Below, piece by piece: positions 6,465 through 64,000 of a stretch of 64,000 nucleotides of DNA. The notes below the pieces were generated by a model. The model was not told where the DNA came from, did not search any database, and saw only the letters and a program-made list of their open reading frames with translations. Both the position numbers and the translations under genes were made by a program. Source of the DNA: a virus (Duplodnaviria > Heunggongvirae > Uroviricota > Caudoviricetes); the IMG/VR virus record IMGVR_UViG_3300020049_016248, one strand, 5' to 3'. How positions within the stretch are numbered: the stretch's first letter is position 1; the number at the start of each line of letters is the position of its first letter.

Positions 6465-6552
6465 TCTGATTAAAGTAATGTACAAAACAAATAAATTAAT
6501 CGAAAAGTTAGAAAACTAGTTAATAAAAGAAACTGAAAAAGGAATTAGGTTA

Positions 6553-7494
6553 ATGTTTAGATATGTTGTAGGAATAGATAGAGGTGGAGTAACTGTAGAT
6601 AGTTCTTCTAAAATATCTAAAGAAGAAATGTTACTTGAAGTAAAAGAAATAAGTGAAGAGTTTGATTATGGAATTTATTTTTTTCAAAAAGTTAACGTTT
6701 ACACTGTTTTAGGGGATGAGTACACAATAGTATATTCTCCAGTTGAAATTAACACAGGTAAAATTTTAAATTATGCACAAAACTCTGATGATGGTGTTTA
6801 TGTTTCATTACAAAAGTTAACTTCTTTAATAAAGGAAAGTAGCAACAAAGTAGATAAATTAATCGAAAAGTTAGAAAAACTAACTGGTAAAAAGGTTAAG
6901 TTAAAAGAAGCTTCATCTTCTACAAAGTTTGAATTAACTAGTAAAGGAAAATCTTTAGTTGCTGATTATAAACAACTACATAGTGCATTAGTTAGATTAG
7001 GTGTTGAGGATGATTTTGAATTAGGTGATGATGCTATGGATGCACAAACAGTATATGGTGCAGCTGTAGTTTTAAAAGATATAAATTCTTTAAAACCTTA
7101 TTTTACTTTAGATGAAATAATTGATATAGAAGGTGATGAAGAGTTTGTTGAAAAGACTTTGATTCCTTTATATCTAAGAAGAGGATATATTAAACAAGTA
7201 ACGACAGAAAATGTAAAGTTGACTGAAGTTGCAAAAACGTTTAAAAAAGACATTGGATTGAGTACATCGTTTGACGAATTCAGAGAAATAGATTCCTTGT
7301 TAAGAAAAGCTGGTTTTAAAGCATCAACGATAGAAGATACAGTTCGCGGAATTGTTGACGAAACTTTAGATTATTATTGGTGGATTGCTAGAGGTGATGA
7401 TATGCCTCATGGTATTACAATCAATAACCCTAAAATTTTTAAAACTAAAATGTATAACGCTTTATTAGACTATCAAGGTGAAAGCGAATATTAA
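6553..7494 (+). CDS. putative internal head protein; may originally have started at 6478
   Basis: EKLTGKKVKLKE motif; in-frame upstream ATG at 6478 separated by TAG 6517-6519. Confidence 0.45.
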   Translation: MFRYVVGIDRGGVTVDSSSKISKEEMLLEVKEISEEFDYGIYFFQKVNVYTVLGDEYTIVYSPVEINTGKILNYAQNSDDGVYVSLQKLTSLIKESSNKVDKLIEKLEKLTGKKVKLKEASSSTKFELTSKGKSLVADYKQLHSALVRLGVEDDFELGDDAMDAQTVYGAAVVLKDINSLKPYFTLDEIIDIEGDEEFVEKTLIPLYLRRGYIKQVTTENVKLTEVAKTFKKDIGLSTSFDEFREIDSLLRKAGFKASTIEDTVRGIVDETLDYYWWIARGDDMPHGITINNPKIFKTKMYNALLDYQGESEY

Positions 7495-11045: not shown

Positions 11046-11378
11046 TTATTTGAAAAGACCAATGATTGCTAATACAACACCAAAGATAATTTGAACAATC
11101 GCCCAAGCAGTAGTAGAAATAGTTTTAAAAGTCTTCAGACGTTCAATTTCATCTCTCATAGATCTAATCTGTGAAGGTGAAGCAACATCGTCAATATCTT
11201 TTTTCCATTGCTTTAACTCACCGATAACAGATGTAGTAGCTTTAATTTCAGCCATTTCTTCTCTCATATCAGCTAGTTCAGTTTTAATACTTTCATAGTT
11301 AGAATTTAAACGTTCTAACTCTTTAAGAACATGTTTTGACCATATTTCCCATGATTCTCCTTGAGGATTCTCTGCCAT
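11046..11378 (-). CDS. coiled-coil protein with C-terminal TM helix (holin/XhlA-like architecture)
   Basis: Heptad region followed by WAIVQIIFGVVLAIIGLFK. Confidence 0.5.
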   Translation of the reverse strand: MAENPQGESWEIWSKHVLKELERLNSNYESIKTELADMREEMAEIKATTSVIGELKQWKKDIDDVASPSQIRSMRDEIERLKTFKTISTTAWAIVQIIFGVVLAIIGLFK

Positions 11379-11881
11379 TATAAATCTCTATGAAAATTAA
11401 CAATATTTTGAAAGTCATCAAAGTCTTGAACAATATGTCCAGAAACTTTAATAACACCTGTAGGATATACTAATATAGCAATATATTGATTTCCTTCATA
11501 GTAACCAAATTTAACAACGTTATTTACACTTTCTTCAGCTTCACCAATATTCAAATGTAAATCATTCGCCCAATTTTCTAAATTAAAAATTGCAACTTCT
11601 TGTACTGAACTTTCAATTCTATCTTTCTCTGAAGTCTGTGTAGGTGTTTCAATTGAAACTTCATCTGCTTCAGCAACAACATTTACAGTAGTTTTATCAG
11701 CTATTTTAGATATTTTATCTGCATCCATAGTAGCTAGATCTTTAACTTTAATATTAACACCTTTAGTTGATGGTAATTCTTCTTTTATAAAGTTTTGTTG
11801 AGAAATACTATGGTCAACGCGTGAAATTGCTTCGTTGATTAATGAAGTTATACGAGATTGTCTTTTTGCTTTGTAAGACAT
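11378..11881 (-). CDS. hypothetical late protein
   Basis: TATTTA on the minus strand at 11906-11911; LINE and FIKE sites. Confidence 0.5.
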   Translation of the reverse strand: MSYKAKRQSRITSLINEAISRVDHSISQQNFIKEELPSTKGVNIKVKDLATMDADKISKIADKTTVNVVAEADEVSIETPTQTSEKDRIESSVQEVAIFNLENWANDLHLNIGEAEESVNNVVKFGYYEGNQYIAILVYPTGVIKVSGHIVQDFDDFQNIVNFHRDL

Positions 11882-57381: not shown

Positions 57382-58309
57382 TCTTCTTAAGTCACGTTTA
57401 TTTCTCTCATGTTTAGGGACTGTAATGTTTGTATTAGGATTTTGGAGCTGGTGGCAAGTAGCTGACACTCCATCATCTACACCTATTTACTGGTTTCAAC
57501 TTACACTAGGTGTAATTTTAATAGTTTTTTCATTAGCATTAACTTATCTACTTTATCTTGACTGGTGTTCAAAAAAAGAACCTAAAAGTGAATTGAAAGA
57601 TGAATATTATTTATTTCTAGATGATGACCGTATTCCAGCTGATTGCGCTACGTATATGTATGCATTTAAAGTAGATTGTAAGATTTATCATAAACCTTGG
57701 GAGATTGTAAGATCTTATAGTCAATTCAAAGAAATAATTGAAAGGAGAGGTTTACCAAAATTAATTTCCTTTGACCATGATTTAGCTGATAATTGGAAAT
57801 TGAGAGAAAGTTTAGATATTAAAGATTGGTTTGATGAAACTGAAGGTAGAGAGTATACAGGGATGGATTGTGCAAAATGGTTAGTGCAATACTGTTTAGA
57901 AAAAGATTTACTATTACCTAAGTTTATAGTTCACTCTGCTAACCCTGTAGGGAGAGAAAATATTAAGTCTTATTTAACTAATTTCAAACTAAGACAAGGT
58001 TTAACGATTGGTGATGTTGAGTGGAGTTGGAGAAAGGATTTAAAAGATAGTTATCTTTGGGAAGCTAATTGGGTATCGTTAGATGGTGATGGGATAAGAT
58101 TATATATTCAAAAAGATGAAACAGGTTTTTCTTTAGAGTGTTTTAGTGGTATTCCAGCAAGTTCAATTAACATAGATTCAATAGATTATGGGTCATTGTG
58201 GAGTAAGATGAATGTAGTTGAACCTATATCAGATTATAGTTATATTCAACAAAGTGTAATAATAGCAAATTATTTATGTGAACAATTTTGCGAAAAAAGC
58301 GAATTTTAA
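57368..58309 (+). CDS. 2-TM protein with cyclic-phosphate-processing receiver-like domain
   Basis: LFLDDDRIP, VRSY.QF, ISFDHDL, TGMDCAKWL, HSANPVGRENI. Confidence 0.75.
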   Translation: MKINNLLKSRLFLSCLGTVMFVLGFWSWWQVADTPSSTPIYWFQLTLGVILIVFSLALTYLLYLDWCSKKEPKSELKDEYYLFLDDDRIPADCATYMYAFKVDCKIYHKPWEIVRSYSQFKEIIERRGLPKLISFDHDLADNWKLRESLDIKDWFDETEGREYTGMDCAKWLVQYCLEKDLLLPKFIVHSANPVGRENIKSYLTNFKLRQGLTIGDVEWSWRKDLKDSYLWEANWVSLDGDGIRLYIQKDETGFSLECFSGIPASSINIDSIDYGSLWSKMNVVEPISDYSYIQQSVIIANYLCEQFCEKSEF

Positions 58310-59333
58310 TATGACAAAGTTTTTTAATTATCAAGCATTCCGTAATGATGAACAAATGTTCAAACATTATGTAACAGCATTTCAAATGTTGTTCAATGAA
58401 GGATCTATTTTTGTTTCTACTAGGTTTAAAATGATTTATGTTTTTACTTCTAAAGAGTTAACTGTTAGGGAAATTGTTTTATTATTTGAGAAAAACCAAG
58501 TTGGTGGTGCAAAAACTTTTGAAGGTATTTTACAAGAAATAAGCCCTTGTTCACTTTCAGGTTATCTTCCAAAAGTTTTCTTTGACACAAAAGATGGCAA
58601 AGATCAATTTAGTAATTTTGAAGATATTTTAGTAAAAGCAAGGGAAGAAGAAAAAGGTAGCTTAATAGGTACAGTCGCAAAAATTAAAGAAGAGTTAAAT
58701 AAAGATTAGTAATGACGATAGAAGAGTTTATTGAAACTACGTATAATGTAACAGTTACACCTGGGTTTTCTTATCAAAAGATAAGACCTAGGATTGTTTG
58801 TAATGATGGGTTTAGTTTAAGTGTTCAATGTTCTGAATATGCTTATTCTACACCTAGAAAAAACATTAAAAAGTATACAGAAGTAGAAATAGGTTATCCT
58901 TCAAGTGAAGAAGAATTAATTGTTGAGTATGCTGAAGACCCAGATCATCTAACAGAAACTGTTTATGGTTACGTTCCTATAGAAGTAGTTAGAGAGGTTT
59001 TAAATAAACATCGAGGTATTAATATTGGTGCAACATTCCCTCGTATCGTTGAAGAAACAGTAAAAAAGATAAATAAAGAATTAGATGAAGAAAGATAAAG
59101 ATAAAGAAGAATTTCTCATTGACAAGAAAATTATAAGTGGATTGACCCCAGGTCAATGTAACGCTTTAGCTAACTCTATTGAAGAAAACTATCATAAGTT
59201 GAAAGAGACTTGGGAGTTGGTTAAGACAACTGCAGAACAAAAAAGATATTTAGAAAGTTTAGATTTAAGAATAAAAAACTATAGAGCATATTACGAACAA
59301 GACTTACTGAGTACAACAAAAGAAAAACAATAA
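58278..59333 (+). CDS. three hypothetical ORFs (58278 tagged, 58712 tagged, 59085)
   Basis: 58712 has RIVCNDGFSLSVQ..YSTPR..TVYGYVP. Confidence 0.65.
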
Positions 59334-59338
59334 AATAG

Positions 59339-59369
59339 TTTGTAGTTTGAAAAATAAAGCATACTTTTA
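59339..59369 (+). promoter_or_regulatory. Bacteroidota-like promoter for the tRNA operon (TTTG-N19-TACTTTTA)
   Basis: Motif and spacing; a TATTTA is also present at 59393. Confidence 0.55.
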
Positions 59370-59404
59370 GGTTATAATTAAGAGAATAAGTATATTTAAT
59401 AACA

Positions 59405-59500
59405 ATGAAAAGAATTTTTAACATAACTTTTTGTCCGATAACAATCGTTGAGGATATTATTGCGGTGGATGAACCGTCAGTAAAAACTAGAGGTATGTAA
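59405..59500 (+). CDS. attenuator leader peptide 1 (31 aa)
   Basis: MKRIFNITFCPITIVEDIIAVDEPSVKTRGM; control codons match the downstream tRNAs. Confidence 0.8.
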   Translation: MKRIFNITFCPITIVEDIIAVDEPSVKTRGM

Positions 59501-59523
59501 AAATAAAAATATATTAAATATTT

Positions 59524-59558
59524 AAACCTCTAGTTGTAAAAAAGCTAGAGGTTTTTTT
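59524..59558 (+). terminator. attenuator terminator 1
   Basis: aaacctctagtt-gtaaaaa-agctagaggttttttt; 5' arm also complementary to aactagaggt at 59485-59494. Confidence 0.9.
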
Positions 59559-59600
59559 ATCTTTAAAAAACAACGTGTGGTATAAGGGGTAGGTTTATCT

Positions 59601-59673
59601 CGAGAATATGGTGTAATCTGGTCGCACAAATGCTTTGGGAGCATTAAGAGCCGTTCAAATCGGATATTCTCGA
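59601..59673 (+). tRNA. tRNA-Pro(TGG), slightly atypical acceptor/T stem
   Basis: aatgc-tttggga-gcatt; C1-G72, A73. Confidence 0.8.
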
Positions 59674-59716
59674 CTTCTTTGGTTCGAACCTTGCTACCCT
59701 GACAACAATTAATAAT

Positions 59717-59788
59717 GCTCCCGTCGTCTACTGGCTAGGACATAAGGTTTTCAACCTTAAAAAGGCGGATCGATACCGCTCGGGAGTA
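59717..59788 (+). tRNA. tRNA-Glu(TTC)
   Basis: taagg-ttttcaa-cctta; gctcccg/cgggagt; T-loop ATCGATA. Confidence 0.9.
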
Positions 59789-60016
59789 CAAACAAAAAAA
59801 TAACAATATGAAAAAAACTTTTAAAAAACTTTTAACTATCAAGAAGAAAGAAACTGTAAAAGAAATTAAAACTTTTCATTCTATAGCAATAAGAGTAGAT
59901 GAAATAGGTAAAAAGAGATTAATAATCTAAAACAATCTTGTTCTAGTTGTGTGATAGCATATAGAATCCAAAGTAAATCTTAGTAATAGGGTCTAAGAAG
60001 ATTGTTTTAAAATTTT

Positions 60017-60096
60017 GGTCTACGGGGCTGCTAGACGTGGCCGTCGCACTGTCACTGCGAAGATTCAGATGGGTTTAAATCCCATGTAGACCGCCA
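60017..60096 (+). tRNA. tRNA-Asp(GTC) with encoded CCA
   Basis: tcgca-ctgtcac-tgcga; ggtctac/gtagacc G CCA. Confidence 0.9.
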
Positions 60097-60100
60097 AAAT

Positions 60101-60229
60101 AGCACAATCGTCTAATTGTACGAAAATCGTACTGTTAGTTTTCAGTTCGAAAGACTATTGGAAAAACTGATACGGTAAGGGTACCGGCTTTGGATGCCGG
60201 AGATCTAGGTTCGAGTCCTAGTTGTGCTG
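60101..60229 (+). tRNA. tRNA-like gene (anticodon TGG by pairing) with 58-nt D-loop insertion
   Basis: agcacaa/ttgtgct, ccggc-tttggat-gccgg, ctagg-ttcgagt-cctag. Confidence 0.7.
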
Positions 60230-60239
60230 CTAAATTGAA

Positions 60240-60479
60240 ATGATTATGAATATGGATTTAAACTTAACAGCTATTGTCAAAGATAACTTTGTACACTTTA
60301 GAAGATATAGAGTAGGTAATTTCTTTTACGGAGTTGTATACAAAGGAGAAAAGTATGAATTTCCAGTTCCTTTAGAAGATATCGGAGATGCAACATTGCC
60401 TGATTCTGACAAAGCAATTATGTTTATGCGTTACATAAGAAAAGCAATTAACGATAATACATTTGTAAGTATAAATTAA
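60240..60479 (+). CDS. small hypothetical protein inside the tRNA cluster
   Basis: FPVPLEDIGDAT..DKAIMFMRYIRKA. Confidence 0.65.
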   Translation: MIMNMDLNLTAIVKDNFVHFRRYRVGNFFYGVVYKGEKYEFPVPLEDIGDATLPDSDKAIMFMRYIRKAINDNTFVSIN

Positions 60480-60486
60480 TTAATAA

Positions 60487-60559
60487 GGGCTTGTAGCTCA
60501 ACTGGCTGAGCGCTTCGTTTGCAACGAAGAGGATGAGGGTTCAAATCCCTTCAGGTCCA
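60487..60559 (+). tRNA. tRNA-Ala(TGC)
   Basis: cttcg-tttgcaa-cgaag; G3.U70. Confidence 0.93.
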
Positions 60560-60579
60560 CTGAGTAAATTACAATATAT

Positions 60580-60651
60580 ACTCATATAATTCAGTGGTAG
60601 AATGCGATCCTGATAAGATCGATGTCGAAGGTTCAATTCCTTCTATGAGTA
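60580..60651 (+). tRNA. tRNA-Ile(GAT)
   Basis: cgatc-ctgataa-gatcg; actcata/tatgagt. Confidence 0.92.
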
Positions 60652-60818
60652 CATGAACAGTAAAAATAATGATTACAGAATTAGACAATAAAGTTCAAAA
60701 AGAAATTGAAGCAATTTTCGATAAAGAAAAGGAAACTAAAAACTTACCTTCTCGTAAACGTAAGTTGAAAAGAATGAGATTAAAAGTTTGTAAGTTTTTT
60801 TCTTTTAACTAATTTTAT

Positions 60819-60893
60819 GTCCGATTAGCTCAGCAGGTTTAGAGCGTTGGTTTTACACACCAAAGGTCACAAGTTCGACTCTTGTATCGGATA
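60819..60893 (+). tRNA. tRNA-Val(TAC)
   Basis: ttggt-tttacac-accaa; gtccgat/atcggat. Confidence 0.92.
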
Positions 60894-60910
60894 CTTAAAA
60901 AAAAGAAAAC

Positions 60911-61387
60911 ATGAATGTAAGTGGTTATGAAATCGAAAACCGTTATCTCTTAAAAAGAGTTCCAAATATTTCTTTTGATGAGGTTTTTGAAATTGAACAA
61001 TTTTATACCCCTGAAGGTAGATTTAGATTCAAAAAAAATAAGAACACAAAAGAGGTTTCTTACTATCAAACGAACAAAAAAACTATATCACCTGGTGTTA
61101 ATGAAGAGATTGAAAAAGAGATCTCAGAATTTGAATTTAACAAAGCTATTAAAACAGCTACAAGAAAAATAGTTAAAGAAAGAGGTATAATAAAACATTC
61201 AGGTTTAACTTGGGAAGTAGATTATTTCATTGGAAACTTATTAGTAATCTTAGAGGTTGAAGTTGATACTGTAGAAGATCTTAAACAAATTGTTTTACCT
61301 GACTTCTTTCAAGAGGTTTTAATCTTAGATGTTACAGGTATAAAAGAGTTTTCAAATTATAATTTAGCTGACAATATAAAAAACTAA
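60911..61387 (+). CDS. CYTH (triphosphate tunnel) domain protein
   Basis: EIENRYL, IEQFY, EEIEKEI, IVKER, WEVDYF, LEVE, DVTG..SNYNL. Confidence 0.85.
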   Translation: MNVSGYEIENRYLLKRVPNISFDEVFEIEQFYTPEGRFRFKKNKNTKEVSYYQTNKKTISPGVNEEIEKEISEFEFNKAIKTATRKIVKERGIIKHSGLTWEVDYFIGNLLVILEVEVDTVEDLKQIVLPDFFQEVLILDVTGIKEFSNYNLADNIKN

Positions 61388-61389
61388 AA

Positions 61390-61587
61390 ATGGAATTAGA
61401 CAAGTTTGTAAATCAAGTTTTAAATAAAGAAAAGGGAACAGTAATTAAATTATGCAAAGAGTCTAAATTGATTCCTAGAGTTGTGAGAGAAGATAAAACA
61501 ACTTTTTTCGGAACACAAGACTTAAACTTTGAAAGAGTTAATTTAGAAATCGACAACGGTATTGTTACAAACGCTTATTTAGGATAA
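61390..61587 (+). CDS. small protein resembling the I78 inhibitor family
   Basis: TQDLNFERVNLEIDNGIVTNAYLG. Confidence 0.5.
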   Translation: MELDKFVNQVLNKEKGTVIKLCKESKLIPRVVREDKTTFFGTQDLNFERVNLEIDNGIVTNAYLG

Positions 61588-62258
61588 TGGAACTATCAAT
61601 TTTACATATTTCTGACACACACAATAAACATAAAATTATTCCGAAAGACTGGTTAGTGCCAGCAGATGTAATTGTACATTCGGGTGACATTTCAGGTAGA
61701 GGTTATTTTGCAGAAATTGAAGATTTTTTAAGCTGGTATTCAAACTTAACACAATATACATATAAAATTTTAATTGCAGGTAATCATGATTTTGGTTTTC
61801 AAGATAACCCTAATAAAGTGCGAGAGTTATTGAATGATTATCCTGATATTATTTATTTAGAAGATTCAGGTGTTGAAATTCTTGGGGTAAAATTTTGGGG
61901 TTCACCTTGGCAACCTACTTTCTTTAATTGGGCTTTCAATTTAGATAGAGGTTTACCTTTGAAAGAGAAATGGGATTTAATACCAAAAGATACAAACGTA
62001 TTGATAACACATGGACCTGTTAAGGGTTATAGAGACAAAGTTTACAATAGATATAGTACAAGTGGTGAAAGTGTAGGTTGTGAAGATTTGTTGAAAGTAG
62101 TTTTAAAAATAAAACCTAAATTATTTTGTTGTGGACACATCCACTGCAGTTATGGTATAGAAGAAAACGAAAATACTATATTTAGTAATGGATCGATTTT
62201 AGACGAAGATTATCAAATTGCGAATCACCCTAATGTTTTTAAAATCAATTGCCCATGA
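61587..62258 (+). CDS. metallophosphoesterase (MPPED-like)
   Basis: ISDTH, HSGD, IAGNHD, GSPWQP, ITHGP, GHIH. Confidence 0.92.
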   Translation: MELSILHISDTHNKHKIIPKDWLVPADVIVHSGDISGRGYFAEIEDFLSWYSNLTQYTYKILIAGNHDFGFQDNPNKVRELLNDYPDIIYLEDSGVEILGVKFWGSPWQPTFFNWAFNLDRGLPLKEKWDLIPKDTNVLITHGPVKGYRDKVYNRYSTSGESVGCEDLLKVVLKIKPKLFCCGHIHCSYGIEENENTIFSNGSILDEDYQIANHPNVFKINCP

Positions 62259-62458
62259 TATTATTAGAGTTTACAAAGCAAGAGTTAAGTAAATGTGTTT
62301 TAGCACAAATACTTACAGGTAGAGGGAAAGATCAATATGAGTCTATGTTAAGTGTAGGAATATCTCCAAGTATAGTGGAAAATTGTATAAGGAATAAAGT
62401 TACATTATCACAGTATGAAAAAAAACAAATTGAAATATTAAAAACGATTATTATATAA
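62249..62458 (+). CDS. hypothetical protein
   Basis: Its stop overlaps the leader-2 ATG (TAATG). Confidence 0.5.
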   Translation: MPMILLEFTKQELSKCVLAQILTGRGKDQYESMLSVGISPSIVENCIRNKVTLSQYEKKQIEILKTIII

Positions 62459-62517
62459 TGAGAACAAATTTAACAATATGTATATGTTTAAAAAATTTAA
62501 TTCTACCTAAGAGTTGA
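62458..62517 (+). CDS. attenuator leader peptide 2 (19 aa)
   Basis: MRTNLTICICLKNLILPKS with ATA-TGT-ATA-TGT. Confidence 0.7.
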   Translation: MRTNLTICICLKNLILPKS

Positions 62518-62541
62518 AAGACATAACTATTGTTATAACTT

Positions 62542-62576
62542 AAAACCTCTAGATAGAAATATTTAGAGGTTTTTTT
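62542..62576 (+). terminator. attenuator terminator 2
   Basis: aaaacctctagata-gaaa-tatttagaggttttttt; alternative pairing with ttctacctaagag at 62501-62513. Confidence 0.9.
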
Positions 62577-62580
62577 ATTT

Positions 62581-62655
62581 GTTGGGGAAGCATAACTGGT
62601 ACATGCGCAAAGCTTATACCTTTGAGACAGTCGGGTTCAAGTCCCACCCCCAATA
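62581..62655 (+). tRNA. tRNA-Ile(TAT)
   Basis: caaag-cttatac-ctttg; gttgggg/ccccaat A73; D stem gcat/atgc. Confidence 0.85.
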
Positions 62656-62754
62656 CTACATAAGGTGCTTTTGTTCATGGAGAGCAGTAGTAAGTGTATT
62701 TGAGTTTGTTAACAGTTTTGAACCTATTATACCTATTTATAATAAAAAATTACA

Positions 62755-63582
62755 ATGGGAAATAATAAGAGCTATGACAAAGTGATAATTCACCCAAACC
62801 ATATTAAAAATTCAAAACAACTTACTGCGTTGGTAAGGAGTAGAAAGATAGAAAACGAACGCATATATTTAGAGTCACCGAAATGTTGTAAACAGTGTTT
62901 TAAAGTTTTAGAGTATGAAGATAGAACTAAAGAATTTTGCAATCGTTCATGTGCAAGTATTTATTCTAATATTAATAGAGTGTTTGCACCTAAGAATGAT
63001 CAAAGAACAAAAAAAGGGAACTGTAAAAAATGTAACAAAGAAGTTGTGGTTAATATAAGAGCTTCAAGTGAAAACATTGTATGTAAAGAATGTAAGGAAG
63101 CTAACCCTTACAATAAGGTAAAATATAAAAAAGGAATAAATAAATGTAAATTTTGTACTGAAGATGTTGTGCAACCTAAAATGATTTGCACAACATGTAG
63201 AGACAATTTTAAAAATGTTTATAGTTTCAACTGTAGATTTGATTTCCCTTTAAGTAAGTTTGTTGAATTGTTTGACTTTGAACTAATAAAAAAACACGGT
63301 TGGTATAAAGCAAAAAATAAAGGTAATAATTTACGTGGTGTGAGTAGGGATCATAAATTTTCAATTACAAGTGGGTTTAAAAATAAGATAGATCCAGTAT
63401 TAATGAAGCACCCTTGTAATTGTCAATTATTGTTACATAAAGATAATCAAAAGAAAAGACACAATTGTTCTATTTCTTTAGAACAGTTAATAAAAGAGGT
63501 AATAGCGTTTGAAAAAAAATATAATTATTGCCCTGAAGTTTTAACTTACATTAAAACTTTGAATACTGGTGATGTGGTCTGA
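62755..63582 (+). mobile_element. HNH endonuclease with Zn-finger CxxC repeats in the tRNA cluster
   Basis: Several CxxC pairs; SRDHKFS..HPCNCQLL.HKDN; TATTTA at 62734. Confidence 0.75.
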
Positions 63583-63650
63583 GTTGGTCGAAGGCATTCC
63601 ATTGCAACTGGAAAATACAAACATCGTGGGTTCGAATCCTACCATCACCT
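63568..63650 (+). tRNA. tRNA-Cys(GCA) with 12-nt variable loop
   Basis: ttcca-ttgcaac-tggaa; ggtgatg/catcacc U73. Confidence 0.85.
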
Positions 63651-63663
63651 CTTAACTTACAGA

Positions 63664-63688
63664 ACTGGTTCGATCCCAGTAGGCACCT
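63664..63688 (+). pseudogene. 3' tRNA fragment (T arm plus acceptor strand)
   Basis: actgg-ttcgatc-ccagt aggcacct with no 5' half. Confidence 0.55.
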
Positions 63689-63724
63689 CTTGATTGTTTG
63701 TAGTTTTGTTCGTATCTTTAGTGT

Positions 63725-64000
63725 ATGGAAAATTATAAACCTTTACCGTTACCTAAAGATACAGCGTGGGAAAGAAAATCCCTTTCTAAATATTTACCAA
63801 TTTGGTTAAATCATTTTATTGAAAGTTTACGAAACACTTTAAAATGGTTACCAGTTATTTGGGGAGATAAACATTGGGACTATTATTATGTTTATGAAAT
63901 GTTAAAGAAAAAACTAGAATTTCAAAGAGAATATTTAGTTAAGAATAACAGAAACTTAGGGGTGCCTAGTGATAATTTTTACATAACAATTTGTTTAAAT
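63725..64000 (+). CDS. hypothetical protein, runs off the window
   Basis: MENYKPL..KWLPVIWGDKHWDYYYVYEMLKKKL. Confidence 0.7.
   Translation, partial: MENYKPLPLPKDTAWERKSLSKYLPIWLNHFIESLRNTLKWLPVIWGDKHWDYYYVYEMLKKKLEFQREYLVKNNRNLGVPSDNFYITICLN

Follow-up and report, generated by a model that had tools for sequence, protein, structure and literature searches.

A likely codon-matched leader-peptide attenuator ahead of tRNA-Ile(UAU) and tRNA-Cys in a phage tRNA operon

The 64,000-nt stretch of phage DNA analyzed here (IMG/VR record IMGVR_UViG_3300020049_016248; hereafter the window) carries near its 3' end a short open reading frame (ORF) that is followed by an intrinsic terminator and by the genes for tRNA-Ile(UAU) and tRNA-Cys(GCA), an arrangement that we call the Ile-Cys unit (Table 1). 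The original prediction for this region, made from the sequence of the window, had described a 19-codon leader ORF containing ATA TGT ATA TGT, a 14-bp GAAA-capped terminator sharing the core of an upstream "attenuator 1", tRNA-Ile(UAU) a few nucleotides downstream and tRNA-Cys(GCA) further on. All of these parts were found: ARAGORN and Rfam both called the two tRNA genes, and a AACCTCTAG core is common to the terminator hairpin and to the hairpin of the sister unit (59524-59554). The leader is closely embedded in its surroundings, with its ATG overlapping the TAA of the upstream ORF (TAATG) and only 8 nt lying between the end of the terminator stem and the start of tRNA-Ile(UAU). This 8-nt gap is too short to hold a promoter belonging to tRNA-Ile(UAU) itself, which must therefore come from read-through.

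Table 1. Features of the Ile-Cys unit, its predicted RNA helices and its sister unit in the window
Feature	Position	Strand	Remarks
Upstream 67-aa (amino-acid) ORF (69 aa from TTG 62249)	62255-62458	+	Also a called gene in public contigs
Leader ORF, 19 codons + TGA	62458-62517	+	M-R-T-N-L-T-I-C-I-C-L-K-N-L-I-L-P-K-S-stop
Control codons ATA TGT ATA TGT (Ile-Cys-Ile-Cys)	62476-62487	+	
Hairpin P1 (predicted anti-antiterminator)	62471-62535	+	Outer stem 62471-62489/62519-62535, inner stem 62496-62504/62510-62518
Predicted antiterminator	62501-62558	+	62501-62515 with 62544-62558 (5' arm and loop of the terminator)
Intrinsic terminator	62542-62580	+	Terminator scan; 14-bp stem, 4-nt GAAA loop (hairpin 62542-62573), T-run
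tRNA-Ile(UAU)	62581-62656	+	ARAGORN and Rfam, 45 bits
275-aa ORF	62755-63582	+	phrog_23051 (PHROGs family of unknown function); separates the two tRNAs
tRNA-Cys(GCA), 84 nt	63568-63651	+	ARAGORN and Rfam, 46 bits
Sister unit "attenuator 1"	59405-59558	+	31-codon leader and terminator; precedes tRNAs Pro, Glu, Asp, Ala, Ile(GAU) and Val

The window has a G+C content of 28-31% throughout. The terminator scan returned 6 terminator-like sites in the region, against 1.7 expected, and ARAGORN placed eight plus-strand tRNA genes at 59.6-63.7 kb, with Rfam concurring. Runs of at least four consecutive ATA/TGY codons occur in just 2 of the 502 small ORFs of the window (10-60 codons, six frames), the leader ORF included. 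Five of the 18 leader residues match tRNA-Ile or tRNA-Cys, four of them being the control codons, and ATA occurs in the long ORFs of the window at 29.5 per 1000 codons. Scanning 58000-64000 with cmscan (E <= 1) returned the tRNAs and two chance hits, with no T-box (RF00230) or other Rfam cis-regulatory element. The 10-codon ORF in the +1 frame at 62477 was ruled out, being shortened to 4 codons in the relative L211 (introduced below).

RNA folding predicted the three classical attenuator states. Folded as free RNA, the region has a minimum-free-energy structure of -32.3 kcal/mol (z = -6.45) made up of the terminator and a second hairpin, P1, which in the predicted fold encloses the control codons and masks the antiterminator strand. 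When the terminator 3' arm was omitted, pairing of 62501-62513 with 62547-62558 became the minimum-free-energy fold (-12.5 kcal/mol, z = -3.5), a value equalled by none of 200 shuffles; the pairing of the leader end with the terminator that had been proposed is thus recovered as the best fold in this setting. We then held a ribosome-sized stretch single-stranded. With no ribosome the constrained fold gave P1 and the terminator, with a ribosome on the last control codon it gave the antiterminator, and with a ribosome at the stop codon it gave the terminator only. For the sister unit, the antiterminator duplex of attenuator 1 has an energy of -14.8 kcal/mol (z = -5.3).

Relatives of the locus were collected at two levels. 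Exact-protein look-ups returned near-identical contigs from several samples (L081-L087), and homologues of the upstream 67-aa protein at 84, 79 and 72% identity anchored the comparison with more diverged phages, L211 being the 72% relative. The contigs of these three homologues, one of them 214-245 kb, all carry the leader-terminator interval. Across five distinct alleles the leader ORF keeps its start, frame and stop; the one indel inside it is of 3 nt, three indels of 1 nt each fall beyond its stop, and one leader change is synonymous. The four control codons are identical in all 7 aligned sequences, and the terminator is invariant. Leader and terminator together are 89-93% identical to the window versus 76-82% for the flanking gene, and the downstream tRNA-Ile, always UAU, comes in four alleles that are 42-72% identical to one another, so that the interval is better conserved than either of its neighbors. 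All four relative lineages whose contigs extend far enough have tRNA-Cys after tRNA-Ile(UAU). In sum, diverged relatives retain the ORF with its control codons, the terminator, and tRNA-Ile(UAU) followed by tRNA-Cys. At the level of RNA structure, P1 is paired in 99% of cells across the 7 sequences, every change being a one-sided U-A/U-G swap, and the antiterminator in 93% of cells. Most relatives have T in place of C62507, which removes a mismatch from the antiterminator of the window, and the L211 allele of this helix (-19.6 kcal/mol, z = -3.6) outcompetes its own terminator even at equilibrium.

Conservation ends abruptly on the downstream side. When the window was compared with L081, L211 and L213, sequence divergence was seen to start exactly past the T-run, which suggests, from the alignments, that cassettes are exchanged at the boundary between the leader-terminator and the tRNA. 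The spacing of the two tRNAs varies as well: the 275-aa ORF lies between them in the window, L081 and L213, is absent from L211 and L215, where the gap is 8-38 nt, and has at its site in L084 a GIY-YIG-like ORF (11104-11769; weak match).

We next widened the comparison to 24 more distant relatives, located with about 50% identity in the neighboring phosphoesterase. Leaders were picked by a blind rule, namely the longest ATG ORF of 12-60 codons ending no more than 75 nt before a strong terminator, and the resulting family set comprised 35 unique units in 25 related loci. An ORF matching the rule stands ahead of nearly all tRNA blocks, usually beginning M-K-T/N, with the terminator about 24 nt past its stop and the first tRNA often 7-20 nt past the terminator. 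The proposal that the Ile-Cys unit is the second instance of a reusable attenuator module is thereby supported in silico. The leaders also match their tRNAs in content. Residues with a tRNA in the leader's own block numbered 622 of 1052 against 438 expected (z = 12.6 over the 35 units), and the excess persisted when one unit was taken per cluster (25 clusters, z = 11.4) and when pooled leader composition served as the null (z = 9.9). When blocks were permuted among leaders within the same phage, the observed score was reached in 0 of 20,000 permutations. By amino acid, 19 of 20 are commoner in leaders whose block has their tRNA, Met showing no difference.

The match extends in part to isoacceptors. 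The original prediction had called it codon-specific, pairing ATA in this leader with the UAU tRNA and ATT/ATC in leader 1 with the GAU tRNA. Family-wide, codon choice follows the isoacceptor for Arg (AGR vs CGN, p = 0.003), Leu (TTR vs CTN, p = 0.01) and Gly (GGR vs GGY, p = 0.001), and not significantly for Ser. Codon specificity thus stands for Arg, Leu and Gly; the ATA/UAU pairing on which the claim was built is a trend, taken up below, and leader 1 is not purely ATT/ATC, its Ile codons being 2 ATA and 4 ATT/ATC.

Individual loci show what the statistics summarize. L211 has a leader with a Q/S run ahead of tRNA-Gln and tRNA-Ser, a leader rich in T/W/M/R ahead of Trp, Thr, Arg and Met tRNAs, and a Leu-rich leader ahead of two tRNA-Leu genes. 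The K/Y/C/D/A leader of L230 precedes exactly those five tRNAs. The leaders of L207 and L208 are homologous; the L208 block is without tRNA-Ala and tRNA-Asp, and its leader is without Ala and Asp codons. The leaders are matched to their terminators as well. Pairing of the last 12 leader codons plus spacer with the 5' arm of the own terminator had a mean z of -2.45 (p = 6e-8), and across units the own arms were better than swapped arms by 3.6 kcal/mol (p = 3e-6), which is co-variation at the family level. The paired strand lies mostly within the final 30 nt of the leader ORF, so that it would be hidden beneath a ribosome terminating at the stop codon and left uncovered by one stalled upstream.

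The series of units continues beyond the window. In L081 a third unit lies at 6494-6733 (about 64355-64594 in window-equivalent positions), with a 32-codon leader rich in Thr/Trp/Met/Arg, a terminator and then tRNA-Trp and tRNA-Thr, and L211 has five leader-terminator-tRNA units in series. From the TTA, AAA and AAT codons of the Ile-Cys leader it had been foretold that Leu(TAA), Lys or Asn tRNAs would follow, and this did not hold: the next unit in L081 is the Trp and Thr one, in L211 a separate Leu-rich leader precedes Leu(TAA), about 4.7 kb downstream, and neither a Lys nor an Asn tRNA was seen there within 10 kb. The L-K-N codons of the leader are replaced by F-N in three relatives and are, on account of this substitution, not control codons.

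Based on these results, we consider it likely that the Ile-Cys unit is a working codon-matched leader-peptide transcription attenuator that gates tRNA-Ile(UAU) and tRNA-Cys inside a phage operon, and that the two tRNAs are probably made only when ATA and TGT are read slowly. The basis for this is in silico and consists of the anatomy and conservation of the locus, of leader codons that match the tRNA sets, and of distal leaders that co-vary with their own terminators. Translation of the leader, stalling of the ribosome and the direction of the switch are what we infer from them, and the unit would be an internal attenuator supplied by upstream transcripts. Transcripts from the upstream genes would carry the 19-codon leader. 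If ATA and TGT were decoded fast, the ribosome would reach the stop and cover 62501-62515, the terminator would form and transcription would end 8 nt before the tRNA; were the leader not translated at all, P1 would sequester 62501-62515 and the terminator would likewise form. If matching charged tRNA were scarce, a ribosome stalled on ATA/TGT would have its front edge near 62500 and would leave 62501-62515 free to pair with the 5' arm of the terminator. With the antiterminator formed, polymerase would proceed into both tRNA genes, and RNase P would release the tRNAs. The predicted outcome is negative feedback, that is, an on-demand supply of tRNA-Ile(UAU) and tRNA-Cys.

Several observations weigh against an attenuator of this kind. 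Taken alone, the leader is weak evidence, having few control codons, and no recognizable promoter was found for the Ile-Cys unit. By plain duplex energy the antiterminator of the window is weak (-4.6 kcal/mol, z = -0.3), with C62507 mismatched, and in the full-length stalled fold of the window allele the terminator is still thermodynamically favored; read-through would therefore have to be kinetic. Among close relatives no compensatory double change was seen in the P1, antiterminator or terminator helices, all changes being one-sided, and the covariation counts at the locus neither support nor refute these helices. At the family level, the units are phylogenetically related and the p-values overstate their independence, the Ile match of ATA vs ATY reaches only a trend (Fisher p = 0.066), and tracking is imperfect, as leader 1 of L211 retains Asp codons though no tRNA-Asp was found in its block.

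Rather unlikely, in our judgment, is a real translated switch that answers to another input (amino-acid starvation, ribosome availability or an infection timer) or runs with inverted logic, stalling lowering tRNA synthesis. A stalled ribosome is blind to whether a tRNA is missing or uncharged, and the ribosome geometry used above is inferred from footprints in other bacteria. However, the match at the isoacceptor level (AGA vs CGN, GGR vs GGY, TTR vs CTN) indicates that the tRNA species is tracked, not the amino acid. The antiterminator strand, in turn, sits immediately 3' of the control codons and falls inside the final codons of the ORF. In this trp-type layout stalling leads to read-through, which argues against inversion.

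We give a low probability to an ordinary intrinsic terminator closing the upstream operon, with a small ORF that is open by chance in AT-rich DNA and tRNAs that arise from unregulated, leaky read-through. The hairpin and T-run are those of a textbook terminator directly following a coding gene, the repeat ATATGTATATGT is a simple one of 6 nt, and the weak antiterminator of the window and the lack of covariation among close relatives are as expected for a plain terminator. Yet a chance frame would hardly keep its start, stop and frame in diverged relatives, with an in-frame indel, and the rarity of such codon runs among the small ORFs speaks against it too; nor does a plain terminator account for an interval that is more conserved than the flanking gene. 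A terminator at the end of an operon fits poorly with tRNA-Ile(UAU) abutting its stem and with the same abutment of 7-20 nt in many related units, and chance explains neither why leaders match their tRNAs across the family (z = 10-12) nor why they are more complementary to their own terminators than to swapped ones.

A conserved structured RNA with an incidental open frame (the 5' leader of a pre-tRNA, a hairpin serving processing or stability, a small RNA, or a boundary at which tRNA cassettes are swapped by recombination or homing) is very improbable, since it leaves the kept frame and the family-wide tracking of tRNAs by leader codons unexplained and Rfam matches only the tRNAs, even though nucleotide conservation is very high, synonymous sites included, the fold is strong, and divergence sets in right after the T-run, where the tRNA-Ile alleles and endonuclease-like ORFs vary. 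A boundary role would, moreover, be compatible with an attenuator role.

The codon-matched attenuator invites comparison with known systems. In the classical leader-peptide attenuators, such as trpL, hisL and the multivalent ilvGMEDA leader with its Ile, Leu and Val codons, a short ORF with few cognate control codons (only two in trpL) is followed by a pause or anti-antiterminator hairpin, an antiterminator and an intrinsic terminator in series. The phage unit resembles them in these parts, its antiterminator being a predicted one, and the presence of several codon types in one leader recalls ilvGMEDA. It differs in gating tRNA genes rather than biosynthetic enzymes, in being phage-encoded and intra-operon, abutting a tRNA 5' end in a genome that barely uses Shine-Dalgarno (SD) motifs, and in that the phage leaders list the codons read by the gated tRNAs, down to the isoacceptor in the family. 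The pheM leader attenuator of E. coli controls pheST, encoding phenylalanyl-tRNA synthetase, and is likewise a case of leader-peptide attenuation that senses charged tRNA supply for a gene of the translation apparatus; it is bacterial, concerns a single amino acid and controls a synthetase, not a tRNA. T-boxes also throw a terminator/antiterminator switch by reading one specific tRNA through codon-anticodon pairing, but they bind uncharged tRNA directly, needing neither ribosome nor ORF. The tRNA clusters of T4/T5-type phages, with homing endonuclease genes interspersed, resemble the present one in their clustered tRNA genes and the endonuclease-like ORFs inserted between them, and we know of no leader-peptide attenuators for such clusters, nor did the literature searches turn up any. 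All described leader-peptide attenuators that we are aware of gate amino-acid biosynthesis or synthetase genes. Full-text literature searches found no published account of leader-peptide attenuation of tRNA genes; the parts are thus those of classical leader-peptide attenuators, and we could not find tRNA genes reported as their target.

The role of phage tRNAs is an open question, current ideas being that they compensate for codon usage, replace host tRNAs that have been degraded or allow escape from anticodon nucleases. We see about even chances for a wider proposal, in which the units would form a modular, codon-resolved sensor of tRNA demand across the phage clade, each tRNA sub-operon having its own "checklist" leader. 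The Ile-Cys unit would be the minimal form, with four control codons, two tRNAs and a single isoacceptor (ATA/UAU). Such a system would make good precisely the host decoding capacity that fails in infection, for instance because codon usage is mismatched, host tRNAs decay or anticodon nucleases act in defence. The conserved leader-terminator cassette would, in addition, be a fixed socket for the exchange of tRNA alleles and endonuclease genes. A leader that gauges how fast the codons of its own tRNAs are decoded would mean that translational demand is sensed by the phage for each codon and met with the tRNA that reads it. Leader-peptide attenuation would thereby be extended to tRNA genes as targets, compact and programmable sensors of tRNA supply would become available, and the question of why phages carry tRNAs would become directly testable. 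The Ile-Cys unit, with its four control codons and two tRNAs, would be a convenient minimal test case.

Expression signals were searched around the leaders. The best promoter hit, a sigma-70-like match at 62430-62459, was rejected as the promoter of the Ile-Cys unit, as its -35 is not kept in L211 and the start would fall past the ATG. SD-like 4-mers precede 4 of the 79 long plus-strand ORFs of the window, fewer than at random positions (10%); because this phage barely uses SD motifs, a leader without one is no objection to translation. TAnnTTTG-like motifs occur before leaders in relatives, and Bacteroides phage DAC15 has a tRNA with 78.5% identity to the tRNA-Ile of the window. The scarcity of SD motifs, the TAnnTTTG-like motifs and the DAC15 tRNA likeness all fit, and hint at, a host of the Bacteroidota type. 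Two further motifs were seen. The motif ATATTTAA lies 6-30 nt ahead of many leader ATGs in relatives and at 59392 in the window, which has 6 plus-strand sites, leader 2 being without one; it may be a phage promoter element. In units of L207, L208, L217, L221, L229, L232 and L235 with a gap of 30-60 nt, the motif GTTCTTTGA(A/C)AT follows the terminator and precedes the first tRNA; it may serve as a second promoter or signal processing, which would complicate a pure read-through model for those units.

In further database searches, the exact terminator pattern was absent from IMG/VR and JGI metagenome contigs, and a scan with a looser hairpin pattern gave unrelated matches only. Searching IMG/VR with the 67-aa protein returned no relatives, whereas the phosphoesterase returned 80 loci there, the nearest of them without nearby tRNAs. 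GenBank phages contained no close relative, giving tRNA-sized matches only, and the metagenome-contig relatives of a 177-aa downstream protein were distant and uninformative.

Some minor features of the tRNA region were also recorded. The 275-aa ORF, which runs 15 nt into the 5' end of tRNA-Cys, was at first taken for an HNH endonuclease; this was dropped, as it has no Pfam match and matches only phrog_23051 in PHROGs. Endonuclease-like ORFs between tRNAs are gained and lost among relatives, and another weak GIY-YIG match lies further on in L081 (6775-7443). The tRNA-Cys(GCA) has a class-II-like D arm, a long variable region and a U73 discriminator, and occurs in forms of 78-83 nt in relatives. 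On its 3' side, at about 63660-63690, is an apparent 3' half of another tRNA (T arm and acceptor strand), which is also kept in L215. Finally, a partial Rfam tRNA match (34 bits, model positions 6-65), uncalled by ARAGORN, was found at 60162-60223.

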